Source: Phyllosticta citribraziliensis
Lineage: Eukaryota
DNA: 64,000 bases
Reading direction: 5' to 3'
NCBI RefSeq assembly: GCF_038025025.1
Contig: NW_027117340.1
Span: forward strand, 1-64,000
Part shown: piece after piece, positions 9,652 to 59,409 of the stretch
Position numbering within the stretch: the first letter of the stretch is position 1
Layout of the letters: each line of letters opens with the position of its first letter
Position numbers and translations under genes: made by a program
Notes under the pieces: generated by a model
The model's input: only the letters and a program-made list of their open reading frames with translations
The model's database searches: none
What the model was told of the DNA's origin: nothing

Positions 9652-9884
9652 GCACATCACAAAGCAAGACAAGTTTCGGCGCGGGTATTGTTTCTTTGCT
9701 CACTGGCTATCTGGTCTACAGCAAGCTTGAGATGCCGCTTCTCACGGTCGACTGTGCGCCATGGTCTAGCAAGCAGCGGTCCGCCCTTTCAGGCAGAATT
9801 TTCTCCCTTTTTCCAGGGAGCCAAAGTCATGTCTCATAACGCCGTGTCCCAAAAATGCATCAAGGGTAAGGCGGGAGGACGGGT

Positions 9885-18020: not shown

Positions 18021-18141
18021 TGCAGGTTTAGGTAAGCGAGACGCGACTCCATTGAGGCCAAGAACCCAGACTGCTACCAATCTCTACACAAAACCCATGG
18101 CCATCCGATTTCCCTTCCCTGCAAAACAAAGGGCCACATTT

Positions 18142-25600: not shown

Positions 25601-27122
25601 AAGAGGGAGCCGGCAATGAGACCCTGTATCAGAGTCGCAAACTGCAAAAAGATTTGGGTCCACTTGTCTCCCCAGAGAATCTGGTACTGGCGGATCACAC
25701 AAGCCCTGACTTGAGTAAGGAAACTCGTCGTCAACGGGGATGAGTTGGGAAGGCTCTTGTTCTTTTCGTATTGAACCTGCGCCTTGAACTCCTCGGTGTA
25801 TTGCGCAGCTTCTGAAGTTTGGGGATATTCGTATTCGGCGATCATGGCGGGCTTGATGAGCGACTTGTCGTACTCTGCCTTGATCTCATCCGCGTTTCTT
25901 GGGAATCGATTGTCAAAGCCGGGGGCAATGACTCGCTCGGTTGGAACGGTGACGCCAGTGAGGAAATCTCCCTTGTTTGCAGAGGGATCGCAGACGAATC
26001 CGAGGTGCTCCATGAAGGGCACAGCTTGGTCGCCGGGACCGTAGTAAATTTGCTTGCCGCCGTCGAGCAAGAGAACCTTGTCGAAGAGGTTGTAAATACC
26101 GTTTCCGGCCTGGTAGAGGGTCACGATGGTAGTGAGGCCGAGAATATCCGTCATGGCGCGAATGGCCTTGGTGTACTCGAGGGCCGTCGAAGCATCCAGT
26201 CCTCGCGTCGAGTTGTCCCATGCCCATACAGAGCCTCGAGTGGCCAGGCACTCGATGATTGACACACGCTTGCGCTCTCCGCCAGAAACTCCTCGAACGT
26301 ACTCGTTGCCAACCTTGGTATCATACGTGTGCTCAATGCTCATGGATCTGAGCAGATAGTCTTTCATTCCCGTGACATATTCTTCAGGCGTATTCACGCC
26401 AGGAGGCAGATGAGCGGGAACCTTCATGCGAGTCGCAAAGTCGATGGTCTGTCCAACCGTGAGGGCAGGGAAAAAGATTTCTTCCTCGGTGTTCATGACG
26501 ATTTGTCCTCGGTATTGCTTGGCTTGCTTGTGATCCAGGTTTCCGAACTTGACGTCTCCGGTGATTTCCTCGTATCCAAGTCTCCGGTTCGAAAGCATGC
26601 TGAGCAGGGTGGTGCAGCCGGCGCCAGGACGGCCAAGAACCAGCAACATCTCGCCTGGCTTGACGCATCCATGCGAGTCTTGAATGATGGTCTTCAAAGG
26701 CTTGCCCTTCGGGCCACCTTTGTTGGGTTTGTACTGGGACAAAACGTTCTCCTGGAAAGTAGCATCGCTCGATATGCCTGAAGGTGTTAGACGGGACGAA
26801 GGGAGGATGAGGATTGCTCACCCTTGACTGTAAGGTTCTGCCACGTAACTCCTAACCTGGCACTTCTCGCCCCATCTTCGTAGTTCTCTTGCTTGATGCG
26901 TCTGAGGTCTTCAGTCATGTGCCAATCCTCGGCCTTGGTAGCTCCGCTACTCTCCAAAACATCTTTCTCGTCGTCCTTGTCGTCTGGTGAATTCAAGTCT
27001 CCGTCCGAGTCAAACTCTTTGCTTCTTGAGCTTTCGCTCACCGTGAAGCGAGGCAGTCCATTGGAATCCAGAGAATGAGATCGAACAATCTCTTCGAGGT
27101 TGTCGGGGGGGTAGGCTGCCAT
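22650..27122 (-). CDS. Full-size PDR/ABCG multidrug ABC transporter (AtrB-like)
   Basis: NBD1 has GRPGAGCTT and [13 protein letters not shown]2 has [17 protein letters not shown] and LDEPTSGLD. Two TMDs and three introns. Confidence 0.95.
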
Positions 27123-29555: not shown

Positions 29556-30720
29556 ATGTCTCCGCAACTCCCGAAAACCTACAAGGCCGCGGTCTTTGAG
29601 AAGCACAACTCTCCTCTGGTCATCAAGGAGTTGGAGCTCAAGCACCCCCAGCAGGGTCAGATTCTCATCAAGGTCCACGCCTGTGGTGTCTGCCATTCCG
29701 ATGCCATGCTCAAGGAGGGTATGATGGGCGAAGTGTAAGTTGGTTGAGGAAGAAGCTTTTTGGATATTTTGCCAACGTTTTGCAGCCCCAGAATTCCCGG
29801 ACACGAAATCGTTGGAACCGTCGTCGCCGTCGGTCCTGGTGAGAAGAAGTGGCAGATTGGAGACCGCGTCGGTGGCGCTTGGCACGGAGGTCACGACGGT
29901 ATTTGCAAGTCTTGCAACCGTGGATTTTTCCAGACCTGCGTCCAGGCAGAGGTCAACGGCATCACCCGGGACGGTGGATGTAAGTCAACAACTTGCTTCA
30001 ACAAGACACCGCTGACAACTCCAGACGCCGAGTACACTCTCCTCCGCACTGAGGCCGCCGTCAGCGTGCCCAAGGAGCTCGACCCCGCCGAAGCCGCTCC
30101 CTTCCTCTGCGCTGGTGTCACCGTCTTCAACTCCCTCAGGAAGATGAACATTGTCCACGGAGACACCGTCGCCGTTCAGGGTCTCGGTGGCCTTGGTCAC
30201 TTGGCCCTCCAGTACACTCGCAAGATGGGATACAAGACTGTCGCCATCTCCAGCAGCGACTCGAAGAGGGACTTTGCCTTTAAGCTCGGCGCCAACGCCT
30301 ACATTGACACGAGCAAGGAGGATGCCGCCGAGGCTCTGCAAAAGATGGGAGGCGCGTCGTGCATCGTCGTCACTGCTCCCAACCCCAAGATTATTGGTCC
30401 TCTGATCAACGGTCTCGGCATTGAGGGCAAGCTGCTCATTCTTGCTCGTAAGTCAGATACACCCCAATGCTGAACCACGCTAACATGTCGCAGCCGTCGG
30501 AGACATCCCGGTCAACACCGTCCCCCTGATTGTCAAGGGCGCCAGTGTGCACGGCTGGCCCGCGGGTCACGCGCTCGACAGCGAGGAGGCTCTTGCCTTT
30601 GCGCAGAACCAGGACGTCAAGTGCCTGATTGAAAAGTTCCCGCTCGAGAAGGCTGACGAGGCGTTCGAGTACATGATGGCCGGAAAGCCAAGGTTCCGTG
30701 CCGTTTTGACCATGGACTAA
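29556..30720 (+). CDS. Zn-dependent alcohol dehydrogenase (MDR)
   Basis: ACGVCHSD, PGHEIVG, CKSC..C, APFLCAG and GLGGLGH motifs; ends RFRAVLTMD*. Three introns. Confidence 0.92.
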
Positions 30721-32349: not shown

Positions 32350-34065
32350 ATGGTCTACTGCGGAAAACCGTCCAAAGGGTGCCACACATGCCGCCAACGA
32401 AAGATCCGAGTGAGCAAACAATTGGACCTCTCAGTGCTAAGCTTTTTTTTTTAACCACCGAGTCAGTGTGACCAACAGCCGGATGGATGCTCCCAATGTG
32501 CCAAGTCGAAGCGGACATGCCCCGGTTACCGTTCCCAGTTGGATGTCATGTTCCGCAATGAGAGCACGCGGATTGAGAAGAAAGTAAAAGCACGGGCAAA
32601 GGTCTCCCGTTCCACCGTTCCAAGCCAATCTGGATCTCCCAACTCCGCAATCACCTCCGAGACTGCTCCTGGATCTCCTAACACCTCCCCTGCTTCCACG
32701 GAAGTTGCTCTCGTCCAGCCTTCTTTTGTTGTCTCCCCTGCTCCCAATGTGGATGAACTTGCAACGGGATATTTCACGTCCAACCACTGCAGCCATGTCT
32801 TCTTCGGGCCAAATACGGGCGTCTTCTCTGCCAAACTGGCAGACCCGTGGATTACGGACATTACCCCAGCACTGCTTTACTGCATGAAGGCGGTTGGATT
32901 ATCAGGACTATCCCGCTTGCACCATGACCCAAGGATGCTCAACCGAGCATGGGGTCAATATGCGGAAGCCATTCGAATGACCAACGAAGCCCTGGCATCG
33001 CCGACAGAGGCGCTCAAGGACGGGACTCTCCTTTCAGTCATCATCCTCGGAGTCTTTGAAAGTTCAAACGGCCGCACGCGGCAGTCTCTCGATGCTTGGG
33101 CAGCCCACATCAGTGGTGCGGCAGCGCTTTTGTCACTCCGCGGTCGCCGCCAGGTCACGACGGCCGTGGGCCGCCGAATGTTCTTCCAAGTCACGTCCAG
33201 CATGTTAATCAACTGCATTCAAAAAGACATCCCCTTCCCAAAGGAGGTGCAGGCACTCATGGATAGCATGCGAGACGCGCGGCAAAACTCGAGCAATGCG
33301 CCAGACCCGTTTCAGCCCATCTGGCGGCTGCGAGAACTCATGGTGGAGCTCGCAAACTTCCGGGCCGACGTCTTCAACAAGAACATGACGGACCCGCACG
33401 ACATCATCGCGCGCTGCATCGAACTCGACACAGCCATCCTGTCCAGCATGCAAGCCTTCCCGGCCGACGTGGCCTACACGCGCGTTTACACCGACGCCGA
33501 CCCGGACGTCGTGCTCGACGGCTTCTACGACATCTACCCCGACTTCTGGATGGTGCAGACGTTCAACACGATGCGCAACTTCCGCATCCTGCTGCACAGC
33601 ATGATCCGCGGGACGCTGCTTCGCGGCTTCACGGCCAAGCCGCCGCTCTTCACGCAGCCGCAATACACGCGCCAGCTGCAGCTCACGCTCGACACACTGT
33701 ACGGACTCCAAGCGGACCTCTGCGCCAGCGTCCCCCAGCAAATTGGCTACGTGTCCAAGGCGCAACGGCAGGGCAGCAGTCCGCTGCCGCAGCGCCACAA
33801 GCCGTGGCTGGATTTCGAGAACGACCTCTTGCCCGAGTCGTGGCAGATTGGCACCGAGCACCTGCCGCTCGTGCGGTCGTCGGGCAACAACTTGTTGAAT
33901 TGGAGCTTGTTTTTGATCGGCAATATGGATATTACGACGGAGAAGACGCGGGCGTGGGTTATTGACCGCTTGGAGGAGACGGGGAGTATGATGGGCATGC
34001 ATCATGGCACGGTGCTGGCCAAGTTTGTCAGGGAGTTGAGAGATGCGAATAGAGAGAAGCGGTGA
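32350..34065 (+). CDS. Zn2Cys6 transcription factor
   Basis: MVYCGKPSKGCHTCRQRKIR|CDQQPDGCSQCAKSKRTCPGY is joined across an intron at ~32409-32466. A fungal TF domain follows (W.AHISGAAALLSLRG). Confidence 0.92.
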
Positions 34066-36608: not shown

Positions 36609-37622
36609 AGCACTTACTTCGGTGAAGTGTTCCTCTTGTCACGAAGGAAGGGTTGATGTAGTCAGACAGAGCAGTGACAAATGAAGAAATCTTCTCTACG
36701 AATTCCTGAGCCCCCACGTCGGTGCTCTCGGGGGTTAAACGTCATCGAGATTCCCAAGTCAAAGCCACTGATCGCTTTGGCGGGAACATCCGAAGATCCA
36801 TGCCATCGGCCATTCCGAAACAGGCACAAATGCAAGCCTCGGTACCTCATACGAGATTCGGCGTTTTCTCAAGCGATGCGTCTTGTCATTGACCATTTTT
36901 TAGTCGCAAAGATCGTGACGCACGAAAAAGCAAAGGCAAGTCACGGAGTATTTGTGAACGAACAGCTGACAGAGCATTCAAGCCTCCACTTGCAGAACCT
37001 CGATCGCAGCGGGCGTTCCCGCCCAGATTCATTGAACCTGTGCCCCCACGCCTTGGCATCTTGGGTCAGACCCAGGGCTCGGGGAAAGTGGTGTTGACGT
37101 GACGCAATGCTGCCATCTAAGGTAGTGCAGAAGGAAAAACAAGAGCGCGTGTAACCACACCTTCGGCAGCAGTGTCTGACGGCGGGCCAGCGGTATGCAC
37201 GCGCGAGGAGAAAACCACGTGTAAAGAGCAAGATCCTCCCAGGCGTGCAGAAGAGCCGTCATTTGACTACACCACGCATCAGAGGCGGAGAATTAGACTC
37301 AGTACTGCACGCTGCGAACGAATTATTCCGCCAAGTCCACGGTCTTGCTCATTGTTCGTATTTCCTGCCGGTCAGTCGCTGGCTTTGGGACATTCAGCGC
37401 CCTACCCCTTTGGTCACTCCCGCCATGTCTGAAGAGGTATCGAAAAGTGCTCGCCCGGACATGCATGGCGCGAGGCAGAATGGCTTTGCAGGCGATGCAG
37501 TGTCGCGCTGTCAGATTTGCCATGTCGCACACCAAAAGAAAGAGCCGTGCAAGCAAGCAGCGGGGAAGCCCGTCAATGGCGTTGGGCGGTGGTATAAAGC
37601 GGTGCTGCTGCGGACAGAAGAG

Positions 37623-39626
37623 ATGAGCGACACTTTCAAAAGCAAAATCGTCTGGTGCATCATGCTTCTCGTCCTCTTACTTTCCGTCTTTTGGCAGCTT
37701 GGCTCGAGCCACTACGCTTCTCCTCCTGGGCCTGAAGTAGCTCTCCGGCAGGGCATCTACACGCCAAATACAAGTGTCGCCACCGTCGACCATTTTCTCT
37801 CTATCCCCTTTGCTGCTCCGCCTGTTGGCCAGCTTCGTTTCGCCAACCCGCAGCCGTACACGTCTGGATCGCCCAAGAAGCGCTTCAACGCTACGACGTA
37901 TGGTCCAGGATGCCCGCAAGGCAGGTCGGCGCCGCACTACAACGGATACTCCGAGGACTGTTTGACGCTTGATGTACTTCGGCCGGTGGGAGCCAGGAGC
38001 CGCCGCGCGAAGCTTCCAGTCCTGGTCTGGATCTATGGCGGGTCAGAGATTGCAGGACAGTCGCTTTTGTAAGTTGACGTCTCTTTGGGAGCATTCGTAC
38101 TGATTGCAAAGGTATAATGGAACCAAGCTCGTCCAATACTCGGCGTCGATAAACAAGCCCGTCCTGTTCGTCGCACTCAACTACCGCACCGGTGGCTTCG
38201 GCCTATCGGTCAACACTCTCTTCGCCGAAGAGGGCATCATGAACGTCGCAATCAAAGACCAGTACGCGGGACTGGAATGGGTGCATTCCAACATCGCGGC
38301 ATTCGGCGGAGACCCAAATAAAGTCGTCATCTTCGGCGAAAGTGCCGGGTCATTCAACGCGTGGATGCAGATGCGATATGCGGTGGTCAAGAAGGAGAGC
38401 GGGAGACTTTTCCAGGGCGCCATCGCGGAGAGTGGAGCGCCGGCCAGCCTTTTGCTCAAAGGTGAGCAGAAAGACTATTCGAAAACCGTGACTAATGAGA
38501 GTAGGACTGGAGCCTTCCAGTGGGGACGCGTATTTTCAGCAAACCCTCGACGCCACCGGGTGCGGTGATGCGGCGGACAAGCTTTCCTGTCTGCGTGACG
38601 TCCCATACGAGACTCTGACGCAGGTCTGGTTCGACTCGTCGTCTCCGCTAGAGCAAAACATTGACGACTACGGAAATTTGCAAGTTGGGTTTGGAATCGA
38701 CGGCCAACTGGTCAAGTCGGAGAACTACTGGGATCACGAAATCGCCCCCATCCCCTTGGTAAGGAGCTCGTTGGTCTGACGGATCGTGACTTACTCTCCT
38801 GTAGATTCACGGCACGAATCTCAACGAAGGATCCCTTGGGAATCGAGTATCTGCTGGAACTGCAGACAATCGCACCTATCTTGCCGGACTGGTGGCCAAG
38901 GACCTGAACACGACAAACGCTGACCTGATCGACCCCATTGTCGATACGTATTACAGCTACTCGGCATCCGAGAATGGCCGCGGATACAACGCCGACCCTT
39001 CGGCAGACAGCAGCTACTACGTCGGCGAAGCCGTGTATACGGACCTGGTCATGGACTTCCCGCGGCGCGTGTGGGTTGGACTGCACAGCAAGAAGGCGGC
39101 TACATGGAGCTACATTTGGAAGCAAGCACCGCCGCTGGCCACATTCCTGGACCCATGGTTCCCCTTCAAGGCAGGCGAAGTCGATGAGGGTACTTTAAGG
39201 CGACTGGGCGTGTCCCACGCGTCTGAGCTGGGATACGTGTATGGCACCGTGCGAGATACTGAGAACAGAACCAGGGGTGACGTCGCGCTCGCAAACACCG
39301 TGCAATCCATGTAAGCCGCCACCTCCACCATCGTGTCGATCCACTGACCTCCTCTAGGTGGATTTCTTTTGCGTACAGTCTGGATCCGAATAAGCACGGG
39401 CTGAAGGATGTTGCGGACTGGCAAAAGTACAATACCAACAGGGCCAAGGTGATGGCCTTCGAGAACCAGGGTCCTTATCGTCCGAGCATGCAGCCCGACT
39501 CTTTGCGGCTGGAAAGCTATGTGGGTCAAACTTCCCCCGCCATGATTTTGCTGACAGTCAAAGAACGCATACAAGTCCGCCAACGACGCGTTGAAGCTGC
39601 CCAAGTTCCCCACAATCCGCGTATAG
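37623..39626 (+). CDS. Type-B carboxylesterase/lipase
   Basis: N-terminal hydrophobic segment, IPFAAPPVGQLRF, SEDCLTLDV, FGGDP..V.IFGESAG and HASEL. Several introns; the 3' end is approximate. Confidence 0.88.
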
Positions 39627-39763
39627 CCAAACCACGTAGAATTGAAGCTCTTCCTCCAAATGCGTCCTGTGACTTATGTTTCCCTGATATCAGAGCCGGC
39701 CGAAAGAATAAGGAAATGATGATCTTGCATTGCATGTCAACCGCAGGGCTGTGAGACGCGGTT

Positions 39764-39836
39764 CGGTCGACTGTCGTCCGGTAGCAACCCCACCGGTTGC
39801 GCAACGCGGAGGACTGGGCCCCGCCGCAACCCCACC
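39764..39836. promoter_or_regulatory. Three Gal4-type CGG-N11-CCG sites overlapped by CreA-type SYGGRG sites
   Basis: CGGTCGACTGTCGTCCG (39764-39780), CGGTAGCAACCCCACCG (39779-39795) and CGGAGGACTGGGCCCCG (39807-39823). SYGGRG matches at 39788-39793, 39806-39811, 39819-39824 and 39830-39835. Confidence 0.7.
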
Positions 39837-40038
39837 ATTGCAGGGTTGCGCGTAGTGGTTGCTGGCGAGCTGCAAAGCTTCCAAGTACATGAAGCTTCCC
39901 GTCCGCTCACGCTGGTGGGTCGAGTCCGTCGTGTCCGTAGCATTTTCCCTGGCAGTACTTAACACAGTGGGATCCGAATACCTTCTCTGCACTTCCCTTG
40001 TTTGCCCTCCTCTACCACCGCAATTTATCACCGCAAAA

Positions 40039-41286
40039 ATGGTTCAACAAAATGGAGACGCCGTCCAAATCCCCAAGACGATGAAGGCAATCCGCTACAA
40101 CAAAGTGCAGGACTGGGCCTTGGTCGATCTGCCCGTGCCCGAGCCCAAGTCGCACGAAGTTCTGGTCAAACGTGCGCACCCAACTCTTCCTCTCGACCGA
40201 ACTGACAATTCGCAGTCAAGTCTTGCGGCATCTGCGGAACTGACCTGGAAATCCACAATGGCAACTTCGATTCGCGCATGCCGGTCGTCACGGGCCACGA
40301 GTCGTCGGGCATTGTCGTCAAAATCGGGAGCAGCGTCCAAGGCTTCAAAATCGGCGACAAAGTGACGGCTGACAACTCGGAGCTTTGTGGTCACTGCCAC
40401 TACTGCCGCCAGGGCAAGCCGCTGTACTGCGAAAACTTCCTGGCGCATGGCGTCCACCGTGAGTTTCCTTTCTTCTCTCAATTGGCACTGCTGACGGAGC
40501 AGTCAATGGCGGCTTCGCCGAGTACTGTGCTTTCCCCGGCGAGAAGCTGTTCCACTTCGAGAAGCTGTCGTGGGAAGAAGCGGCCATGTTCGAAGCCGCA
40601 TCATGTGCCGTCCACGGGCTAGACAAAATCCGCCCAGACCCCGGAGTGTCGATTCTCGTCATGGGAGCCGGGGCGACTGGACTCTGTCTGGCCCAACTGT
40701 TGAAGCAAAACGGCGGTGCCCACCTCGTCCTGGCGTCCAACGAGGGACCGAAGCTGGACCTGGCCAAGAAGCTCAACGTCGCCGACGAATACATTCCTCT
40801 GCGCCGCGGGAACGAAGTGGAGCAGGCTGCCCAGTGGTCCGACCTCAAGACTCGCTACCCGTACGGTTTCGACATTGTCGTTGAAGCTACTGGCGTTCAT
40901 AAGCTTCTTGAGACGGCGTTTGATCTCGTTACGCGTGGAGGGAAGCTCGTCTACTATGGAGTTTATCCCAAGGACGCGGTAGTGAAGTTGGCTCCGAGTA
41001 AGTCTGAAAAATCAGTGAAGTGCAAAGCTGACTCGACAAGGCCGCGTATTCGGCGACGAAATCACCATCATCGGGTAAGTTTTGTTCGTTCCAACTCTTC
41101 AAATGCTGACATGACAGGTCGTTTTCGGAGATGTTTTGTCTGTCCAGAGCCGTTCATTATCTCGAGACGCGCAAGGTCGATGTGCGAGGAATCGTTACGC
41201 ATACTTTCAAGTTGGAGCAGTTTGGCGAGGCTTTGGACGCGGTGAGGAACAAGACTTGTATCAAAGCCGCCATCGTGTATGATTGA
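40039..41286 (+). CDS. Zn-dependent polyol dehydrogenase (D-arabinitol/sorbitol dehydrogenase-like MDR)
   Basis: SCGICGTD, GHESSG, CGHCHYCRQGKPLYC, FEAASCAVHGLDKI and GAGATG motifs. Four introns; ends KAAIVYD*. Confidence 0.85.
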
Positions 41287-41369
41287 TTCGAACGTTCGAT
41301 AGATACAGATTGGAATACATGCCGATGTCCTGCGTTCAACCAGTCAGACATGAGTGAGACTGCGGAGGG

Positions 41370-41533
41370 GGAGCATTTCGGCCGCCCCTGAACGACTCAT
41401 CGAGTGAGTCTGTTGCTTACAATCGACTGCGCATGGAGCATTCCGGCACGCCCTGAACAGCTCATCAAGTGGGTGATGCTTACAATCGACCGCAGGGAGT
41501 GGTCCTTACGCCCTGCCCTGAACGGCTCATCGA
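41370..41533. repeat. Degenerate ~61-65 bp tandem repeat, about 2.5 copies
   Basis: Units start with GGAG at 41370, 41435 and 41496. Shared cores are CCCTGAAC..CTCATC (x3) and TGCTTACAATCGAC (x2). Confidence 0.8.
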
Positions 41534-41558
41534 CACCGCGTGACGCTTTTCCAAGACT

Positions 41559-41626
41559 CGGACTATAAAGGTCCGTCGATTTTTTGTCAACTTGGAGTGT
41601 GCGCGTTGACGGACGCCAGTCTCCCG
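41559..41626. promoter_or_regulatory. Two Gal4-type CGG-N11-CCG sites upstream of the sugar porter
   Basis: CGGACTATAAAGGTCCG (41559-41575) and CGGACGCCAGTCTCCCG (41610-41626). A CreA-type GCGGGG lies on the minus strand at ~41703-41708 and TATAAA at ~41830. Confidence 0.6.
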
Positions 41627-41889
41627 ATGGAAACACCCGAACCTTGTGCAGAAGAGGAGGCGATGGTAGAAGTAGATTTCGACTCCAGGTTTCGATGTCC
41701 AACCCCGCAAAACCCCATGGTCTTGGGGCTGGGCCCAACCAATTAAGACGGCCGAGTGCGGAGCATATCCCTGCGGCGGCTGTTTGCACGAGTCGCTGCG
41801 AATCTGGTGTGGAATCGAGGCCGGGTGTCTATAAAGCGTCTGGAGTGCTACAAGACGACACCAGAGACGGATTCAATCGTTCAGCAATC

Positions 41890-43999
41890 ATGGTTTCCGC
41901 ATCTGCCGTCGTCACCGGTGACAATGATATTTCCTACGGCCCAGCAGGTATGTGGATTGTACACTGACTGGACTTGGCTGATGCAATGCAGGATACAAAG
42001 GGCTCTTGTCCCAGAAATATGTCTTGGGCATGGCTTCCTTTGCCAGCATCGGCGGACTTTTATTTGGGTACGAAACAAACTCAACTCATCTTCGTCGTTG
42101 ACCGTCGACAGTTATGACCAAGGTGTCATTTCCGGAGTCTTGGTGATGCATAGTTTTGTAAGTCCAGCGGGTTGACTGGTTGCTCAAGACTGACCTCTGC
42201 AGGGCGACAAGTTTCCTGACTTGGCCAACGATCCTACCCTCCAAGGCTGGATGGTCTCTGTCCTCACCCTGGGCGCCATGGTGGGAGCATTCATCAATGG
42301 TCCGACTGCGGATAAGTTTTCCCGCCGGTGGTCTCTCCTGTTCGCCAACATTGTGTTTCTGGTGGGATCCATTATTCAAGCCGCCGCCCAGTCGACTGCA
42401 GAAATCTTCGTTGGCAGGTTCATTGCCGGTATATCCATCGGAATGTTGTCCATGGGAGTGCCCCTGTACCTCGGAGAACTCGCACCGCCCAACATTCGAG
42501 GGAGCCTGGTGGCTCTGCAGCAGCTGGCCATCACCATCGGCATCATGGTGGCCTTTTGGCTGGATTACGGTACGCAGTACATTGGGGGGACGGGTGAGGG
42601 ACAGCACGCCGTCGCTTGGAGGCTGCCGCTCGCCCTCCAATGTCTGCCTTCTCTCATCATGTTGGTTGCGATATTTTTCCTTCCATACTCTCCACGCTGG
42701 CTCGTGAATCGAGGCGAGTCAAGATCCTTGCTCCCGCGTAGCCATGTGTTGACTTGAACAGGTCGCAACGAGGAAGCTTTGGAGACGCTGTGCAGGCTGC
42801 GTCGCGTTGGACCGGAAGACCCTCGAGTCGCTGCGGAGCTGATGGAGATCAAAGTTGCAGCAACCTTTGACAGGGAAAGCCTCGCCGTGCGGTTTCCTGG
42901 CATCACTTCACCGGTCAAGCTTGCCTTGAGACAATACGCGGAGCTTTTTGTTGTCCGCCATTTGAACAGGCGCCTGATCATTGCGTGTCTGCTTCAAATC
43001 ATCCAGCAATTTACGGGAATCAGTACGTCCCCTATGCATTGGATCGCCTTGCCGTCCCCTATGCGTTGGAGAACCCTGCTGACTGTTCAGATGCCATCAT
43101 ATAGTTTGTGCTCCCTGCCAACACGTGGATGATCTGACTTTTGCAGTTATGCTCCGACGATTTTCAAAGACATTGGGCTTAGTGGCAACTCTGTGAGCCT
43201 CCTTGCGACGGGAGTCGTCGGGGTCATCAACTTCTTTTCGACGATCCCTGCCATCATGTACCTTGATAGGTAAGCAAGAATGTGTCGTCGCAAGAGGTCA
43301 CTAACAAATCAGATGGGGCCGCCGCGCGGTCCTTATCGTTGGTGGGGTCGGCATGAGCGTCGCGCAGCTCATTGTGGGGACCATGTATGCCGTGTACCAA
43401 CACAAGTGGGAGAGCAATCGAGGAGCCGGGTGGGCCACGGCCGTCTTCGTCTGGGTCTACATATCCAACTTTGCCTTTAGCATCGGTGGGTGCCGCGACA
43501 CGAATGCTCTTCGCGAGCCGAGCTGACGCAAATAGGATGCGTCAACTGGATAATGCCTTCGGAGATCTTCCCGCCGGGAGTGCGTTCAAAGGCGGTTGGA
43601 GTCGCGATTTCGACCAATTGGTTCTCCAACGTGAGCATCTCGCAGCGCGTACGAGACACGGGCTAAATGTCAACAGTTTATCGTTGCGCTCATCACTCCG
43701 CGCATGCTGCGAGCATGGAAATTTGGGACTTTTTACTTTTTCCTCGGTACGTGGCATCCTGATTCAAAAGCAAATCTGACGGGACAGTCTTTTGCGTGCT
43801 TCTGGTGGTCTGGGTGTGGTTCTTCGTGCCCGAGACAAAGGGGCGGCGGATCGAGGAGATGGACGACATTTTTGGCGGCAACTCGGGCGAGGCGGATATC
43901 CGCATGATGGAGGAGATTCGGGCCAGGTTGGAGGGCGGAAACACGACTGTTTTGGACGGCAAGACGGGCGCGAGTGCCGAGTACAGAGAGGAGGCATAG
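41890..43999 (+). CDS. MFS sugar porter (sugar/polyol:H+ symporter)
   Basis: FGYDQG, D.FSRR, GRFIAG, ELAPPNIRG, PYSPRWL, QQFTGINAIIYYAP and PETKG motifs. About 10 introns, including a 13-nt micro-exon at 43091-43103. Confidence 0.93.
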
Positions 44000-44197
44000 G
44001 CAGAGGTTCTGGACGGGTAACATGAGTCGATGGATTAAGATCCGGGGCAAAAGGGCCGACCGGGGTCGGGGATGATGGATGTTGGCGCGGCTTCTCCACG
44101 CGTTTGTCATGTTCCCCACAACCGCTTTTCTCAATCCATTGTCTCCACACCACCGTCTTCAAACCGCAAGCAGCCTCGCGCATGTCGTTCTTCTTTC

Positions 44198-46382
44198 ATG
44201 CAGCAGCCCCCTCTCGCCAGGCAGTCTTGTGGAAGGTGCTATGGAAAGAAGATCAAGGTCCGCTCCGGCTTTCCACTCTGTTTCACGTGATGTCTAACCA
44301 CAACTCCAGTGCTCGCGAGAGCTCCCTACTTGCACTCCGTGTCGTCGTGCCGGCGCGTCGTGCACGTACGAGAAGCGCCAGCGGACCCCGCTGACCCGGA
44401 AGTGAGCCGTCGACGCCACTCATCGCCCCGCGTGCTGATCTTTTAGGTACCTGACCGAGGTCGAGAACCAGCTCGCAGAGGCGCGCGCTCTGGTCCAGCG
44501 GTACTCGTCAGGAAGCGTGAATGGCAACAGCGTCGAGCCAGAGCCTACTCGACGCGACACCGTCGTTCAGGACGATGGCCCTTCGCCGTTTGGCTCCCCG
44601 CTCGATCGGGAAAACGAACCCAGCGAAGCCCGCCGACGTGCCATCCCCTTCAACCTTGAGTTGACTCCGGTGTCTTCTTCTGGGAATTTGGAGTGGGATG
44701 AACGCCTCATGTCGAGAAACAGCTTGCGTCGTGCCGATGGTATGGCCAACCTGCCCGAGGAGAACGAGGGCTATTTGGGTTAGTAATCATTCAACCTTTT
44801 GTCCCTTTGCTGATGAGAATAGGCATTGCTTGTGGAGCCAGCTTTCTCCACTTGACCGACCTGGGCCAGTTGGCTCATCCGTCAAACGGCGACAGCAGAG
44901 CCTCACCACCTGCGACGGGAGCACTGCCAATGCCTTTGCCTTCACAGCTCGACCAGTATCTGGACGACTATTTTGAACTATATCATCCCTCGTACCCCAT
45001 AATCCACGAACCGACATTCCGTGCAGAGTACATGGAAGTTGTTCCTCGTCCATCCGACAGTCTGTGGCACGTTCGTCTCTACGTCGTCGCGGCCCTGGGA
45101 GCATGTAGTTCCGGAAACGCACCGCTGGGGATGCACATTTCACTGTTCGAAATGGCCAAAAGCAAACTCGCAATCGACATGCTGGAAACTGGCAGCATGC
45201 TGCTCGTCCAGATCCTGGCGTTGATGGCCAACTACGTCCAGAAAGCCAAGTGAGCAGAGTCGAAATAGACAAAGAAACCTTGCTGACTTGATTCCGTCGG
45301 CAGCAAGCCAAACTCGGGGTACAACTATCTCGGTCTTGCCAAACGAATGGCAGTCGGCATCGGCCTCCACCGCGAGTATCCAGACTGGTCCGTCAAGCCG
45401 TGGCAAATCGAGATGCGAAGAAGAGTCTGGTGGTGTCTGGTCATTTTCGACGTGGGAGCATCGATTACCTTTTCACGCCCCATTGAGCTTCCAAACGGAG
45501 TCAACGTGGGCCTTCCTCGCAACTTTCGTGATTCAGTAAGTCCAATGGTTGCGTCAGGATGAACGCGTGCTAAATCCTGACAATCAGGACCTCACCAAGG
45601 CGACAAACAGCTTCCCAGCAGAAGCCCCCGAAACCACCGTCTACACCAACGTGCGCTACCAAGCCACATTCAACCTCGCCATCCAAAAGATCTACACGAT
45701 CCTCATGACGGGCATCTACCCACCGCCCGAGACGTTTGTCAAGTTGGACGACCAGACGATATGCGAATGGGTCAACAGCCTGCCGCCCTACTTCCAAGAA
45801 GGCGTCGTGCAGGCGCCCAAGTTCCGCCTCTGTCAAGCGATTCTGCAGTGGCGCTACCGCAACTTCCGCGTCGTCATCTTCAGACCGTACCTGATCCGGC
45901 AGATTCTGCAAAAGCGCGGCAACAGGGGGAATCAGGAGGCCGAAGACGGCGGCGCCGAAGCGGGCATCGACATCGCGGTGCAGCGATGTTTCCAGGCGGC
46001 GCGCGAGACGATCGCGCTCGTGTCCGACTTTTGGTACACGCAGCGTAAGAGCGCCATGGCGTGCTGGTACGGCATCTTCTTCGTGTTCCAGGCGGTGGTG
46101 ATACCGCTAATTGCGCTGCGCAACGAGCCCGAGTCGGAGCACGCCGACGACTGGGTCAAGCAGATCCAGCAGACCGTCGCGCTGCTCGAGGACATGGCCG
46201 CCATGAACTCGACGGCGTCGCGCTGTCTGCGCGTCATCCAGAGCGAGGCCAGCCCCAACACGCAGCTCAACCACTTCAATTCCCTGTTGTGGCCCTACGA
46301 TCCGGCGCAGTTGGAGGACGGCGAGCGCAACATTTCAGAGTACTTCACCCAGATGGCTGGGTTTCCGTGGGACATGTCATGA
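44198..46382 (+). CDS. Gal4-like Zn2Cys6 transcription factor with fungal middle homology region
   Basis: The spliced DNA-binding domain (introns 44258-44309 and 44402-44446) reads CGRCYGKKIKCSRELPTCTPCRRAGASCTYEKRQRTPLTRKYLTEVENQL. Also has YHPSYPIIHE and MAVGIGLHRE..EMRRRVWW. An alternative in-frame start lies at 44072. Confidence 0.9.
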
Positions 46383-47054
46383 CTGTTGGGCATCGGATTG
46401 GGGGGTAGAGGCCTCATGTAATGGTGTTGACGATAGTAGAACAGTAGTTGGGTCGAAAATAGAGTCCCAAGGCGACCGGACGTCTCAGCCAAAACCACCA
46501 AGCGAAGACGGACGTCGGCCTCGGCCTTTGCAAGATCCAAATAGACTCCAGTCTGCCGCCGTCAACCCGCTCCGTCCGGCGTCAATGCCGTCACGACAAG
46601 ACGCGCGCAACAAGACAAACGGCGCGGAAGCGAGTACGACAGTTGGCACCGTTGCGGGGCACATTACCAAGACGGCGATAATCTCTGTTCTAAGAATCGA
46701 GCCAAGCCGGTAGCCATCGGAAGCTCCAAACAGTCGCAGGGCGGCCTGGCCTTGTCTGGCCTGTCTGGGCTGCTGCCGCTGGGCTAGACTGCGGACGCCG
46801 GGCAGTGTCCACACCACACATCCATCTCCCTCTCCATCTATCTGCAACCTTGTTTCTCAGACCACAAAAGCTTAGCCGTCGTCCTTAAATATGTGGCTGC
46901 CGTGACTGTGGGGCACTTGGTCGAGGTGTGCGGCAACGTTTTCCTGTGTTGTAGAGTACAGTAGAGTAGCTAAAGCGAGCAAGCTTCAAAATGGAAAGCA
47001 TTCACATATTGATAAGTGGGACTGTTGCTGTTGTCTCTAATCTGCGCGCCGAAA

Positions 47055-52526: not shown

Positions 52527-55041
52527 CTAAACAAGAACTTTTCTCAGCACGTCCTGCACGCGCTGCACCGTCGCCGTCGACGTCGTTTGCCCGGCCATGA
52601 AGTAGATGACGTTTCCCAGGATGCGCGAGTGGATGTTCCAGTCGGCGCTGTCGCCCTTGAAGAGCGCTGCTTGGACGTCTTTGGCGGCCGTCGACTTGTA
52701 GCCTGTTGATGCAGAATTAGCAGCGGAATCACAATTTTGATGGGAAGTCTTACCGCCAGCGCCCTGCAGGTCCTTGAGGGTGATGGATAGCACGCTGCCC
52801 AGTGCCCAAACGCCTTCGACGCGCTCCCGATTGCTGGTCCACTCGACAAAGTCTTTGCTCCAGACGCTCCAGACCGGCTCGGCCTCCTGCTCGCTCTCTT
52901 GCGCGGGACCTGCCCACCTGCTCTTAAACTCGTCCCAGGCGCCAGTCGTGTCCAGTGTGCGCATCTCTTCGAGACTCTCAATCGCCACGCTGCAGCCGAC
53001 CGCGTGCGCCGTGTAGCTGTGTCCGTGGAGCAGCGCGTCGCTCTTGTCGTCGCTCTCAAATGCCTTGAAAATATCCTCGCTCGCCGCCGTCGCGCACAAC
53101 GGGAGAAGGCCGCCCGTCAACAACTTGGCATGCACCGAAATGTCTGGGTGGACCTGCAGCAAACTCGCCGCCGACGAGCGGCCCAAGCGATACAAGCCGG
53201 TAAAGACCTCATCAAAGATGACGGGAAGACCCGTCCAAGCATTCGCCGAGTTGGGGAAATGCGCGTCGTCAGCAAAGAGCTCTGGCGAGCTCCGCACGAC
53301 CGAGACGAGGGCGCGCTGGAATAGCGGGTCGACAAAGATCATGCCACCTGCGCCGAGGACGATGGGCTCGATGATGAGAGCGCCGAAGCGGCGGCCCTCG
53401 ACGCGAAGCTGCTTGAGCGTTTGCGTGATGAAGACGCGGTACTGCTCGTACTCGCGGCTCGCCTCGCGCGATTCGAGGTCCATGATATCAGCCAGGCTAC
53501 GGAACGGCTTGTCGGAACCAAACTGGTCCTGTAGAGCCGGGGGGACGGCCACTGTCCAGCGTCCATCGACACAGCTGACGGTGGGGTAGGAGAACCAGAA
53601 GCCTTTGCCCTCGTACCACTCAATTTTTTCGTTGTAGGTAGAAGGCTCGGAGCAATCCATGGCACCCATCGTGTCGCCGTGGTAGCTGCCACTGAGTCCC
53701 AGCACGCCGAGGTTGTCATTGGGACCCCAGCCGTAGCGGATGCGGGCCGCGCGAAGGGCCATCTTGACGGCAACCTCGATTCCGGTGCTACCATTGTCCG
53801 AGTAGAAGACGCGAGAAAGACGCGGATTCGACAGGTAGTCGAGCAGCGTTTCGGCGAGCTTCAGTGCCGGCTCGTGGACTGCTTCTGCAAACATGACGTG
53901 TCCGTAGCGCCCAGCGGCGTAAGCGGCAGCCAACATCAGCTGCGGGTTGCCATGGCCGAGTCCTTGCGTCCACCAAGAACCGGATCCATCGAAGGAGCTC
54001 TTGATGAGTGATTCGGCTCCCTGCTTCTTCTCGAGGGTTTGGAAGTAGTCGCCGCTCGCCGAGTCAATAGCCGTAATCTTTTCCGGTGATAGAAGCGTCG
54101 ACTGCGTAAATGGATACCAAATCTTGTTGTGAGCTCGGCTTGGCATTGACTCGAGATTTTTGACGCGGTCATCGTGACGTTGCTTCATGTGGCTCAAGAC
54201 TTCTTCGATGATGGGACTCTGGCTGTGCTTTTCATAGTACCTCAGCATCAGCTCCTCATCCGCCTCCTTTGAAGACTGCGGCGCGTGTAGCTTGGGAAGA
54301 GTTTTGCACGGCGTCCCATGCTGCTTGAAGTAGGTCTTGAGCTGGTGGTCATTCTGGTAGTAGTCGTCTTCAAAAAGCAACACGGACTCGACGTCGTATC
54401 CGCGAATCTTGAGCGACTCGTACGCGGCAATCGTCTGCGAAATGCCGCCCAGCTTCGAATCGGCAATCAAGACTGCAGGCACACGTAGGGGGCGGTACAG
54501 GTCGGCTTGCGAAGTTCCGGATGGACCGGGCGAGTGGACTCCTCCAGCAGTCTCGATGAATGCCCATCCTCCAAGCTCGGCGCGCTCAGACAAGACTTGG
54601 CGGATTTCGCTCAGCAGCGCTTCGTCGTTGGGAATGTGCTGATTGGTCAGAAAAGGACTTCAAATCACGGGCATTCGTACCAAATTCGAGACGGCGGCTG
54701 CCCTGTCTGGGCTGATGGGCAATTCATATTGATGCAGGCAAAGGCTCTTGAACGCTTCGTCCGTATTGTCGAGATGCTTGGCTAGCCGGTCGATCCCGAA
54801 TTTGCGAATGTGGCTGACAAATTAGAAGCTTGTAATTTCTTGGAATTGGGACTCACCTGGAATCCGCATCTTCAATGTTGCCCGTAGACACTGGTTTGAT
54901 GTACTGCACGCGATCTTTGAGCTTGGCGCGGGCAGCGTTGCACAGCACAGTCGAAATAACCGTCTTGCCGACCTCGGTGTTGGCACCCCAGACCTGAAAG
55001 GTGCGCAAATTGCGGTAGAGGACAGCACCAGCCGGCGCCAT
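52527..55041 (-). CDS. bioDA: Bifunctional dethiobiotin synthetase / DAPA aminotransferase
   Basis: GANTEVGKT, KPVSTG and ETAGG (BioD) are fused to SWWTQGLGH, DNGSTGIEVAVK, YHGDT, FDEVFTG, AKLLTGG and HGHSY (BioA). Three introns. Confidence 0.96.
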
Positions 55042-55503
55042 GGTGGACAACGAGAGAGCGACGGTTACGCGTCGTCCGGCATTGAATTATTGGTGGTGAA
55101 GAGTCGACGGGCGGATACGACACACGGGCCAATGACGTGGCGCCGGAGAAAAGGATGTTGGAGTGGTTGAGGTTGTTGTTGGATCCGGATGTTGTGGTTG
55201 GGTGTTGTTGTTGACTGTCATGGCCATCACTCATCGACCTATCACCAGCCGCCGGCCCGCCAGTCGCCGAGCATCGCCCGACACGGTCACCGAGGGCCAT
55301 TGAACCTACAACGTCGACGCCCATTGAGTCACCACCAGACCCTCTCCATCATGTTGAGCGTCATCATTCGGGCCAATTGACCGTGTACATCGCAATCAGC
55401 AAGAGCAAGGAACGTTGGGATTCATCACGGGACCGCAACGCGACAGACCCGGAAAATCGACACTCACGCCCGTCACATTTCCTAATCGAGACTCTCGTCC
55501 ACC

Positions 55504-56896
55504 ATGGCACCCCTGACCCCCTTGGAGGAACACTTTGTTTCCCTCCTCGCGCGCCGCAAGACGCGCTCTCTCCTGCGACGCATCGAGGACGCGCCACCTC
55601 CCAGCGTCGCCGACTTCACGTCCAACGACTACCTCTCGCTCTCCTCGCACCCCGAAATCACGCAAAACTACCTCTCCTACCTGACCTCCGCCTTTGCCCA
55701 CTCTCAAACCCAACCCCAAACCCAAACCCCCTCCCCCCTGACCCTCGGCAGCACCGGCTCGCGTCTGCTCTCCGGCCACCACCCGCTGGCAGCGCATCTC
55801 GAGACGCTGATCCCCGCCCACCACAACGCGCCGGCCGGCCTGCTCTTCACCTCCGGCTACGACGCCAACGCCGCGCTGCTCTCCACGCTGCCGCAGCCCG
55901 GCGATGCCGTCCTCTACGACGCGCTGGTGCACGCGAGCGCGCACGACGGGATGCGGCTGTCGCGCGTCGCCGCGACCAACGGGCTGCGTCGCTTCGCGCA
56001 CAACGACCCGGCCGCGCTGGCCGCCGCGCTGCGCAGGCTGGTAGACGAAGACGCAGCCTTCGCGGCCGGCTCCCGCAACGTGTTTGTCGTCGTCGAGGCC
56101 GTGTACAGCATGGACGGCGACGTGGCGGCGCTGCGCCAGATGCTCGATGTCGTCGACGCGGCGCTGCCGGCGGGCAACGGGTACGTCGTGGTGGACGAGG
56201 CGCACGCGACGGGGGTGGTCGGGCGCGGGGGCAGGGGGCTCGTGTGCGCAGAGGGTCTCGAAAGCCGCGTATTCGCGCGGGTCGTGACCTTTGGCAAGGC
56301 AGTTGGCGCAGCCGGCGGTACGTCCCCCCTCTCTCCCTCTACCCCTGACAACTACCCCTAACATCCTCGCAGCAATCGTCCTGTGTACGCCACCAACCAA
56401 GCAATACCTAATCAACTACGCGCGGCCCTTCATCTATACAACCGCGCCGTCCTTCCCCTCCCTCGCCGCCATCAAAGTCGTCTACGACTTCCTCATCGCG
56501 CGCCGCGCCGACCCGCTCGTCGCCCACCTGCGCCACCTGCACGCCACCCTCTCGTCCTCCCTCGTGGCCCTCGTCGCTGCGCTTGCGCCACCGCCGCGGT
56601 TGCTTTCGCTCTCCTTGCCTGAATTGCCTCCGTTCCCGTCGCCCCATGTGACGCCCATCGTGCCCATCTTCACGCAGCACCCGCGGGCGCTTGCGGCGTT
56701 TGTGCGCACGCGTGGATTTGTCGTGCGCCCGATCGTGGCGCCGACGGTGCCGCGGGGGACGGAGCGCGTGCGCGTGTGTCTGCATGCGGGCAACAGCGTT
56801 GAAGAGGTGGAGGGGCTGGTGCGTGCGGTCGGGGAATGGGTTAGGGAGAGGTTGAAGAGGGAAGGCGAGAAGGAGGGCGAGAGGGCTAGACTGTAG
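55504..56896 (+). CDS. bioF: 8-amino-7-oxononanoate (KAPA) synthase with PTS1 peroxisomal signal
   Basis: DFTSNDYLSL, GSTGSRLL, HAS, VYSMDGD, DEAH and TFGKA motifs. One intron at ~56318-56372; ends -ARL*. Confidence 0.95.
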
Positions 56897-57205
56897 ACGG
56901 ACTTGTTTGAGGGGTAGTTGGGTAGATTGAAAAAAGCTGCTAGAAAGATGTCAGCACGGAAAAGGGGCGAGGATGGTTTTGTCAGGAATGAGTCAAAAGA
57001 TTGCGGCTCACGTAGAATCTATGTTTGATACCTAGACTGTGATTCATCAATGGTACCAAAAAAGCCAAATAGAATAAATCGAGGTTGACTTGCGTTAGTG
57101 GGAAACGACGCAGAAAAGGGCCATGCTTGAACAAGAACAGTCGATATTCAGTCTATCTCATATAAATCATGCCATCATAACAGCAACCAATTTACTCTAT
57201 TCACA

Positions 57206-58603
57206 TCAAGCCTGAACCTCAGGAGCAGGACGCGGGCTCTTGTCGAAGCTCTTCATGGGCGCCAAACCCCAGCGGTTAAACATGCGGCCGTCCTCGTCCC
57301 AGCCGTTGCACTCGGTCGTCAGCATCTTCTCGCCGGTGAAGATGGCGTTGGCGCCGGCCATGAAGCAGAGGGCCTGCTTCTCCTCGCTCATGGTCTTGCG
57401 GCCGGCGGCGATGCGGATGATGGTGTCGGGCAGGGCGATGCGGGCCGTGGCGATGACGCGCAGCATGGACGAGAACTCGAGCGGCTTGTTGTTGCCCATG
57501 GGCGTGCCGGGGATGGGCACCAGCGCGTTGACGGGGAACGACTCGGGGTGCTTGGGGAGCGTCGACACCGTGTGCAGCAGGCCGACGTGGTCCTGCGACT
57601 TCTCGCCCAGCCCCAGGATGCCGCCGCTGCACACGTTGATGCCGGCGTCGCGCACGTGGCTCAGCGTCTGCAGTCGCTCGTCGTACGTGCGCGTCGAGAT
57701 GACCGACGGGTAGAACTCGCGCGACGTGTCGACGTTGTGGTTGTAGGCCGTCAGGCCCGCCTCCTTGAGCTCCTGTGCTTGGGCCCCGTCAATCATGCCC
57801 AGCGTCACGCACGCCTCCATGCCCAGCTCTCGGACTCCGGAAACCATGGCCTTGACGTTTTTGAGCGCGTTCTTGCGGCCTCGCATGTCGCGCCAGGCGG
57901 CGCCCATGCAGAAGCGCGTGCTGCCGTTTTCCTTGGCCGCGCGGGCCTGCTCCAGCACCGCCTCGACGGGCTCCATGCGTTGAGCCTTGAGGCCCGTCTG
58001 GTACCGTGTCGACTGGGCGCAGTAGCTGCAGTCCTCGCTGCAGCCGCCAGTCTTGATGTTCATGAGGGTGCAGAGTTGGACTTCCTTGGGGTCGTGGAAG
58101 CGGCGGTGGAGCGTGCTCTGGAGGGTATTAGTCACAGCTGGTAGGCCATTGAAGACGCAAACGAAGCCATTGGACGCCGCCGCTTGCACTGAAGCTGTGG
58201 CAGGGGGTGGAGAGCTTCGTCGGCCTGTACTCACAGCTTGGTAGGCCAGCTCCATCAGCGGCTGATAGTAGATGGCAGCAATTTCCTCTTTTGTCCAGTT
58301 GTTCCTCGGGGCCGTGGCAGCAACGGCCTTTTTGAAGATTTCGCGGGCATTGGCCTCGCGGTCGGCCTCGACAGAGGCGGGAGCCCTGGCCGGGGCGGGC
58401 GGAGGAGGAGAGGGCGTGTTGGTGATGTTGTTGTTGTCGACGACGGTGGACATGGGGGCGCGGCCAATGACGGGCCGTCGGTTCTCAGCGGGCGAGCGGA
58501 GGTTGGCCGTGACCGTGGCCGTGGGCGCCAGGACGCGGCGGGCCGGGGCGAGGGCGAGGGCGCATCTCGAGTGCGAGACAAGACGTGCGGCGGAGGTCGA
58601 CAT
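57206..58603 (-). CDS. bioB: Biotin synthase (radical SAM), mitochondrial
   Basis: CSEDCSYC, YNHNVDT, CSGGILGLGE, PESFPVN and ANAIFTGEK motifs, plus an Arg/Ala-rich presequence. Intron at 58118-58234. Confidence 0.97.
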   Translation of the reverse strand: MSTSAARLVSHSRCALALAPARRVLAPTATVTANLRSPAENRRPVIGRAPMSTVVDNNNITNTPSPPPPAPARAPASVEADREANAREIFKKAVAATAPRNNWTKEEIAAIYYQPLMELAYQAVSTGRRSSPPPATASVQAAASNGFVCVFNGLPAVTNTLQSTLHRRFHDPKEVQLCTLMNIKTGGCSEDCSYCAQSTRYQTGLKAQRMEPVEAVLEQARAAKENGSTRFCMGAAWRDMRGRKNALKNVKAMVSGVRELGMEACVTLGMIDGAQAQELKEAGLTAYNHNVDTSREFYPSVISTRTYDERLQTLSHVRDAGINVCSGGILGLGEKSQDHVGLLHTVSTLPKHPESFPVNALVPIPGTPMGNNKPLEFSSMLRVIATARIALPDTIIRIAAGRKTMSEEKQALCFMAGANAIFTGEKMLTTECNGWDEDGRMFNRWGLAPMKSFDKSPRPAPEVQA

Positions 58604-59409
58604 GGTGTGATGGGAGGTGGAGGAGCTGGAGACAGTGGTTCTCAGCTTTTGGAGTCGAGCGAGGGCAGCGAGGGAGACGAATCCCGAGCTTCTGATTCGG
58701 CGAGCGAGAGACCCATGTCATGGCGCTGCGGGGTCCAGTTCAGGTCGGTCGAGTTGTGGATCTTTCTGTTGAGGCCGACTCAGCGATCATGACGATGCTC
58801 AAGACTTTCTGGAGCCCACAAGTACAGCCGAAGCCCGCTGTCGGAGCGCGACGCCGTCATCCGGTTTCAAGCTGACACTGAGTGGTGGAGTGGGCTGGGC
58901 TGCCGTGTCAATCGTCGGTGAGGGTCTTGGTAAACACCATGCTGGCCACCACCACGTCCCGGCGACAGGACATTCTTCCTCCACGAAAGACCCGCGCGTG
59001 TCCTCCTTTTGAACGACAAATCCACCACTTTTGATTTCAAGCAATCCAACTCCCAGGCCGCCCTTATCACTCCCTCGTCCTCTGTCGTCATTCTCTCCGC
59101 CGTCCACGACATGAAGCTTCAATGCACCCAATTCGCAAGAAACAACACGTCCAAGGCAATTCGACCGACAAGTGTCGCGGTCGTCGCGTCGTGATAAGAG
59201 ATGGGCGCGGATACACCATCAGGACCCGCGATCACATCATCCCCTCAAGCTTCGAATCCCCCACTATCCCGCCTCCGCGTCCCTTATACGCTGCCCATTC
59301 GTGCTGCTGCTGCATGACCACCATGGCCCTGTCAATGGCGAGCATATCCGGCTACCAAGCCACATAAATAGACGTAGCTTTCCGTCGTGTACTTGAACAT
59401 TCTTCAACC

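Follow-up and report, generated by a model that had tools for sequence, protein, structure and literature searches.

In fungi, regulators commonly cluster with their targets, and the qa/qut (quinate), alc (ethanol) and prn (proline) clusters each have their own Zn2Cys6 regulator. Gal4 is a protein of 881 amino acids (aa), and ARD1 is an NADP-dependent D-arabitol dehydrogenase. Here, a locus is described from Phyllosticta citribraziliensis, in a stretch of 64,000 nucleotides (RefSeq assembly GCF_038025025.1, contig NW_027117340.1, positions 1 to 64,000, forward strand; hereafter the window). In it, a polyol-type dehydrogenase gene (ADH), a sugar porter gene (MFS, major facilitator superfamily) and the gene for a Gal4-like Zn2Cys6 transcription factor (TF) follow one another, with candidate sites of the form CGG-N11-CCG ahead of the first two.

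This motif has been described in Neurospora crassa for CLR-2. According to extracts of Craig et al. (2015, PMC4620465), CGGN11CCG was present in about 60% of 114 peaks obtained by chromatin immunoprecipitation and sequencing (ChIP-seq), and was called identical to the motif of Gal4p; galactose genes were not targets of CLR-2, and each of 54 genes was bound by it as well as dependent on it. The first-pass annotation of this DNA proposed a Gal4-type circuit with another substrate in a filamentous fungus, and CLR-2 already documents one. For Myceliophthora MtCLR-2, extracts of PMC13267753 report positive electrophoretic mobility shift assays on promoters with the motif, and Torulaspora GAL clusters include a TF, in the portion of that source available. 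Among the papers listed for CGGN11CCG or CGG-N11-CCG there was no polyol-module case, and no literature combining D-arabitol dehydrogenase, Zn2Cys6 and transporter was found.

Gene module and candidate sites

The two promoters with a local, spacing-specific excess of CGG-N11-CCG are precisely those of the ADH and MFS genes that neighbour the regulator. The favoured explanation, which is considered to have an even chance of being right, is a Phyllosticta catabolic module in which a pathway-specific Gal4-family Zn2Cys6 activator is encoded beside the two genes that it controls. The five sites, which had been claimed in the first-pass annotation and were all recovered, are as follows.

39764-39780, plus strand: site A, CGGTCGACTGTCGTCCG, a near-palindromic CGG-N11-CCG whose positions 6-10 are the GACTG core; the ADH ATG is 275 bp downstream
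39779-39795, plus strand: site B, CGGTAGCAACCCCACCG, a CGG-N11-CCG that lacks the GACTG core, overlapping site A by 2 nt and also the repeated element GCAACCCCACC
39807-39823, plus strand: site C, CGGAGGACTGGGCCCCG, GACTG at positions 6-10, its left 10 nt the same as those of the Gal4 site CGGAGGACTGTCCTCCG
41559-41575, plus strand: site D, CGGACTATAAAGGTCCG, CGG-N11-CCG around TATAAAG, the weakest candidate
41610-41626, minus strand: site E, CGGGAGACTGGCGTCCG, GACTG in the register of A and C, 280 bp upstream of the MFS ATG

The placing of GACTG in two of the dehydrogenase-side sites (starting at 39764 and 39807) was accurate, and minus-strand site E at 41610 carries it as well. The description of three sites within 60 bp upstream of the dehydrogenase holds for the length of the stretch, which spans 60 bp, but not for its location, as sites A-C lie 232-275 bp before the ADH ATG. 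The two sites assigned to the transporter (41559 and 41610) are indeed upstream of it, 280-331 bp before its ATG. The motif CGGnnGACTGnnnnCCG fits A, C and minus-strand E and has no other occurrence in the 64 kb; allowing one mismatch in the core motif adds two more places in the window, at 9745 and 50239. The core and register of these three sites are those of the Gal4-binding site CGGAGGACTGTCCTCCG, as printed in the available part of PMC3950707.

Shuffling that preserved the dinucleotide content of each promoter allowed the local excess to be gauged. With the ADH promoter shuffled alone, at least three sites arose in 2 of 5000 shuffles; for the MFS promoter alone, at least two arose in 124 of 5000; and with both promoters shuffled separately, a total of at least five was never reached (0/5000). 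Across shuffles of the whole window, three or more site starts fell within 45 bp in 8 of 1000. The two promoters hold five N11 sites in 1016 bp, a density of 4.9 per kb that compares with 0.40 per kb in the remainder of the window, and exact CGGNNGACTGNNNNCCG has three matches, all in these promoters, where 0.05 would be expected (none of 100 shuffles reached three). The most telling local test is the spacing control: among inverted CGG/CCG pairs with spacings of 1-15 in the two promoters, five of seven are N11, accompanied by one N10 and one N14. The 198 bp upstream of the TF contain no N11 site, but one N10 and one N14. The former, CGG-N10-CCG at 44043-44058, is followed by a short GC palindrome, CCGACCGGGGTCGG (region 44043-44075).

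The three genes were modelled with GT/GC-AG introns across 39000-47000 and, as had been claimed, are co-oriented on the plus strand:

40039-41286, plus strand: ADH gene, 5 exons, 357 aa, zinc-dependent medium-chain dehydrogenase/reductase (Zn-MDR) of polyol type
40039-40171, 40216-40458, 40503-40997, 41041-41074 and 41118-41286, plus strand: ADH exons (splice model)
41890-43999, plus strand: MFS gene, 11 exons, 545 aa, sugar porter PF00083
42714-42761, plus strand: GC-AG intron of the MFS gene (splice model)
43091-43103, plus strand: 13-nt micro-exon of the MFS gene, its letters present in an RNA contig between 43020 and 43147
44198-46382, plus strand: TF gene, 6 exons, 645 aa, Zn2Cys6 and Fungal_trans regulator
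44198-44257, 44310-44401, 44447-44778, 44823-45249, 45304-45535 and 45588-46382, plus strand: TF exons (splice model)

A Pfam search of seven exon translations identified ADH_N (2.8e-21) and ADH_zinc_N (4e-13) in the ADH exons; Sugar_tr (4e-53) in MFS exon 4 alone, placing the porter in PF00083; and Zn_clus (1.5e-4) and Fungal_trans (5.7e-7 and 1.3e-14) in the TF exons, the last of which matched no Pfam family. Enzyme, permease and regulator are adjacent, with regulator-type sites in the structural-gene promoters, the arrangement expected of a self-regulated catabolic cluster. The genes to either side are unrelated (a carboxylesterase upstream, GH79 downstream), and "self-contained" is a fair description. 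The statement that the window has no Leloir GAL genes is also supported in silico: no galactokinase, transferase or epimerase domain was found among the 154 of 229 stop-to-stop open reading frames (ORFs) of at least 110 aa that were scanned by Pfam.

Splicing and transcription were observed in Logan contigs from four runs (X5, X6, X7 and X11) mapped on 39300-46500, the contigs of X7 and X11 being identical to the window and those of X6 90-99% alike. Among the splice joints listed (15 more exist), all four ADH introns are represented (X6, X7 and/or X11), as are five of the ten MFS introns, including those around the micro-exon and introns 8-10, and TF introns 1-3; TF introns 4-5 are consistent with how the record of X6 contig 16 is numbered. 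Contig depths (219 for ADH, about 22 for TF, 1-24 for MFS) are unsuited to ranking expression. In X6, 41469-41709 is without RNA-contig cover, which is not counted as evidence.

Regulator and dehydrogenase identity

The likeness of the TF to Gal4 and Lac9 is concentrated in one module:

44198-44500, plus strand: Gal4/Lac9-like DNA-binding module in exons 1-3, with the cysteines, the linker RQRTPLTRK and the coiled-coil start YLTEVENQLAEARALVQRY

In the spliced TF, cysteines 11, 14, 21, 28, 31 and 38 form the binuclear-cluster pattern CX2CX6CX6CX2CX6C, and Lys17-Lys18 precede the third Cys, column for column with the Gal4 and Lac9 chains. The DNA-binding string quoted in the first-pass annotation is correct in the spliced protein, and the annotated proteins P0001 and P0002 of Phyllosticta have it unchanged. 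P0001, of 645 aa, is 98% identical to the last TF exon and has the same N-terminal 60 residues as the model; the other four of the five proteins found with that exon show identities of 91-92%, 68% and 46%. In two annotated TFs of relatives, P0003 and P0005, the N-termini are without a Zn cluster although YLT[EQ]VE is present; these public gene models look flawed.

Against all PDB chains (phmmer), P0001 is led by Lac9 (1cld, 3e-10) and Gal4 (1d66, 3.5e-9; also 3coq and 7uik), followed by Ppr1 (1pyi, 2.9e-5) and Hap1/Cyp1 (0.3-1). The Lac9 and Gal4 alignments extend from the first Cys through R[ST]PLTR..LTEVE, reaching residues 61-64 in the case of Gal4, and HMMER places a one-residue gap in the query linker relative to both, so that the linker falls short of Gal4 length. 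Pfam assigns Zn_clus (1.3e-6) and Fungal_trans to P0001, and homology spans the full length of proteins labelled yeast GAL4 or lactose-regulatory (for example P0219, 1.6e-60, residues 9-601). In the nearest ESM-Atlas cluster, whose names are generic Zn(2)-C6, 27% of members have Gal4_dimer. Prediction of a homodimer from two copies of TF residues 1-100 scored 0.24 where the mark is 0.32, which speaks neither for nor against dimerisation.

The family is very large: of 1.84 billion cluster representatives, 7618 match at E<=1e-3 and 274 at E<=1e-30. Among its 150 best hits, 55 have the Zn cluster by regular expression and 38 of these carry P[LIVM][TS]R after it, as in the PLTR..LT.VE signature. 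An alignment of 35 rows, hand-picked from these 150 hits together with P0296 and three Phyllosticta proteins, contains two linker types. The short form (C.YE-K..[RK]TPLTR) is found in 19 rows, including the three Phyllosticta proteins and uncharacterised ones from Aspergillus, Rhinocladiella, Hypoxylon and other fungi. The Gal4-length form (C.YSPK..RSPLTR) is found in 16, which include a Lachancea "galactose-responsive transcription factor GAL4", a Komagataella "lactose regulatory protein", and some proteins of Pezizomycotina (P0145, P0164, P0176 and P0261). In a quick IQ-TREE phylogeny of the 35 rows, midpoint-rooted for drawing only, the two types are parted by a branch with a support of 100 in the Shimodaira-Hasegawa-like approximate likelihood ratio test (SH-aLRT), and the TF falls outside the Gal4/Lac9 orthogroup.

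On these sequence grounds, the TF is classed as a genuine Gal4-family protein but not a Gal4/Lac9 orthologue, belonging to a separate clade of Pezizomycotina with a linker one residue shorter. No characterised member of this clade was identified: 20 cluster representatives gave only generic or automated names, and a protein search with the DNA-binding domain (DBD) alone returned four proteins. The first-pass view that the TF closely parallels Gal4 is accordingly right for the DBD, which best matches Lac9 and Gal4, but does not extend to the whole protein, given its separate clade, its shorter linker and the lack of any match to Gal4_dimer (PF03902) on P0001 at E<=1. It is highly improbable that the TF is a true Gal4/Lac9 orthologue controlling galactose or lactose use, with its neighbours as side targets. 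Lac9 and Gal4 are the nearest solved DBDs, and some automated family names read GAL4 or LAC9, yet the short- and long-linker rows are firmly split, Pezizomycotina own Gal4-length proteins in addition, and Leloir domains are missing from the scanned ORFs.

For the dehydrogenase, ADH exon 3 has 326 homologues, the nearest being a Phyllosticta protein at 93% identity. Homologues at 65-71% form a group with the label putative sorbitol dehydrogenase, and the bulk, at 53-60%, has members named as D-arabinitol dehydrogenase, ARD1_UROFA of Uromyces fabae being one. At full length, the Phyllosticta orthologue P0006 shares 46% identity with ARD1_UROFA (167/360, E 5e-123). PDB relatives include ketose reductase 1e3j (2.3e-35), L-iditol 2-dehydrogenase 4oh1, sorbitol dehydrogenase 1pl6 and L-threonine dehydrogenases. 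The two Pfam domains and the similarity to characterised polyol dehydrogenases put the predicted enzyme in the polyol-dehydrogenase branch of the Zn-MDR proteins, where it looks like a diverged paralogue. D-arabitol, mannitol or a related polyol would be a guess at its substrate, based on the ARD1 relationship. The P0006 annotation has a 16-residue insertion at the position of ADH intron 3; because this coincides with intron 3 of both the model and the RNA joints, the intron seems to have been left in the annotated protein, another public gene model that looks flawed.

The proposed circuit and its alternatives

We infer the following circuit, from binding and activation by the regulator to its inducer and substrate. 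The regulator would dimerise via the short coiled coil after its linker, and the dimer would bind inverted CGG triplets 11 bp apart with a preference for CGGnnGACTGnnnnCCG, making A, C and E the best candidates. Two or three target sites would precede the dehydrogenase gene, and one, possibly two, the transporter gene. In the presence of a sugar alcohol, the regulator would turn on the porter, for uptake, and the ARD1-type dehydrogenase, for the first oxidation. It is probably not autoregulated, since its own promoter is without an N11 site.

Several observations weigh against this circuit, some concerning the sites and others the protein. N11 sites are not globally enriched in the window: the count of 30 is near chance (22.7±4.8 expected; 7 of 100 shuffles reach 30). 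The shared GACTG core becomes marginal after post-hoc correction and alone is only suggestive, because 58 of 1000 shuffles equal it when any 5-mer in any register shared by at least three N11 sites is counted. Other repeated elements interleave with sites A-C, and site B overlaps one of them. Site D sits inside 41325-41578, a stretch absent from one X5 contig. Sites A-C may be in a transcribed untranslated region (UTR) rather than upstream of the transcription start, since one X6 RNA contig (3721 nt) connects the final exons of the carboxylesterase gene upstream, unbroken through 39564-40171, with the ADH gene; A-C are thus possibly transcribed in the X6 relative. This contig, which covers 39358-40171 in the joining region and crosses an intergenic stretch of 414 bp, may reflect overlapping UTRs or read-through transcription. 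On the protein side, the linker is one residue shorter, so the preferred spacing could differ from N11; ClrB of A. nidulans is reported, in partial text of the source, to use CGGN8CCG. The Gal4_dimer domain is also unmatched.

The repeats themselves are of two kinds. In the ADH promoter, a second repeat set is interleaved with the CGG sites over 39784-39851, with GCAACCCCACC twice (39784 and 39826), GGTTGCGC twice (39795 and 39844), and a perfect inverted repeat of 8 nt (39825-39832 / 39843-39850). The set may be bound by another protein. Differences in X5 within the 60-bp site cluster, among the 40 of 722 differences listed, are at 39782, 39784 and 39785, and each of these positions belongs to the site B spacer. 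The ADH-MFS intergenic region holds the second kind:

41370-41490, strand not applicable: 65-bp tandem repeat, 1.9 copies, 83% matches

This repeat is surrounded by a length-variable stretch at about 41325-41578, in which X5 contigs skip 41325-41578 (252 nt), 41415-41528 (112 nt) or 41348-41400 (51 nt), or step back 65 nt.

Such repeats raise the prospect that the N11 sites are not functional elements but a by-product of CG-rich repeats in the vicinity, and that any regulation acts via other elements, for instance the 65-bp tandem repeat or the GCAACCCCACC...GGTTGCGC repeats. The near-chance window count, the corrected core test (p about 0.06), the interleaving of the ADH-promoter repeats (D2, D3 and I2) with the sites, the length-variable repeat upstream of MFS, and the TATAAAG-containing site D missing from one relative's contig would all be in keeping with it. 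The by-product explanation is nevertheless unlikely, as five sites were reached in none of the 5000 dinucleotide-preserving local shuffles, the spacing spectrum is sharply peaked at N11, and the core matches a Gal4 site defined a priori.

A further explanation, slightly less probable again, is that the N11 sites are real Zn2Cys6 targets but are read by a different Gal4-family paralogue, either CLR-2-like or a global carbon regulator, while the adjacent TF acts elsewhere or through another motif. The sheer size of the family allows for this, as does the PLTR..LT.VE signature of so many of its top hits, since many paralogues could prefer N11, and a second TF gene (Fungal_trans_2, 32455-34062) is present 6 kb upstream. 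Set against it, the exact GACTG-type sites are confined, within the 64 kb, to the two promoters of the regulator's own neighbours, and clustering of regulator and targets is the usual fungal pattern.

A more ambitious version of the local-activator reading is tentative, and rather unlikely as it stands: that a short-linker sister clade of Gal4/Lac9 in Pezizomycotina kept the full 17-bp Gal4 preference, including GACTG, and was rewired to a polyol module. If true, it would provide a natural experiment on linker length and central-base readout in Zn2Cys6 specificity over several hundred million years. Confirmation of the local module itself would assign a role to a member of a large Gal4-family clade, as yet unnamed, in filamentous ascomycetes, and would identify the regulator, transporter and enzyme that serve polyol use in a Dothideomycete associated with plants. 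It would also offer a compact way to ask if an 11-bp spacing can still be read with a linker shorter by one residue. The module design is of the classic fungal type; it would not surprise a specialist, and is cheap to test.

Orthologous loci were sought in a metagenome scan with the TF alignment, which found no relative. A scan with a two-site DNA pattern returned at least 117 stretches, which were rejected as chance matches in GC-rich contigs (median GC 0.66); none of those listed encodes a TF or dehydrogenase relative (tblastn, 1e-5).

The surroundings of the module, as indicated by Pfam on ORFs, are varied. The upstream carboxylesterase gene occupies 37155-39625. Downstream, GH79 (about 48.3-48.8 kb) and a 630-aa ORF without family assignment are followed by a biotin-synthesis cluster (52530-58717). 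This comprises a minus-strand ORF resembling a fused dethiobiotin synthetase and diaminopelargonic acid (DAPA) aminotransferase (BioDA; AAA_26 and Aminotran_3), a plus-strand class I/II aminotransferase ORF that is probably a 7-keto-8-aminopelargonic acid (KAPA) synthase (BioF), and a minus-strand biotin synthase, BioB, with radical-SAM and BATS domains. Elsewhere in the window are genes for a Zn-ADH (16794-18083), a short-chain dehydrogenase/reductase (18308-19228) and a flavin monooxygenase-like protein (19788-20927), these oxidoreductase genes of 16794-21000 being adjoined by a PDR-type ABC transporter gene on the minus strand (22653-26817). A further Zn-ADH is encoded at 29748-30470, ahead of the Fungal_trans_2 regulator gene.

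Comparison with known systems

With Gal4 and Lac9, the TF shares its Cys spacing, the Lys-Lys pair, R[ST]PLTR..LTEVE at the linker and the start of the coiled coil, and a Fungal_trans middle region, and the candidate sites resemble the Gal4 site in both the CGG-N11-CCG form and the GACTG core. It is distinct in having a linker one residue shorter, in its separate clade and in its unmatched Gal4_dimer domain, and at 645 aa it is shorter than Gal4. Its neighbours differ as well, being a polyol dehydrogenase and a porter rather than GAL or LAC genes. The dehydrogenase, for its part, resembles ARD1 of U. fabae over 360 aa and in its ADH_N and ADH_zinc_N architecture, but its closest homologues, the putative sorbitol dehydrogenases matched by exon 3, are nearer to it than the ARD1-like bulk.

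In layout, the locus is like the qa/qut, alc and prn catabolic clusters, with enzyme, permease and Zn2Cys6 activator side by side and sites in the structural-gene promoters, although here the module has a single enzyme gene. In design, the proposed circuit is the same as that of CLR-2 and MtCLR-2: a Gal4-family regulator in a filamentous ascomycete, a CGGN11CCG motif and a non-galactose regulon. The CLR-2 regulon is a dispersed set of cellulase genes, whereas that proposed here is a local module of two genes. Because pathway-specific Zn2Cys6 regulators beside their targets and the reuse of the Gal4-type motif by CLR-2 are both already established, the general picture of fungal gene regulation would not be changed by this locus.

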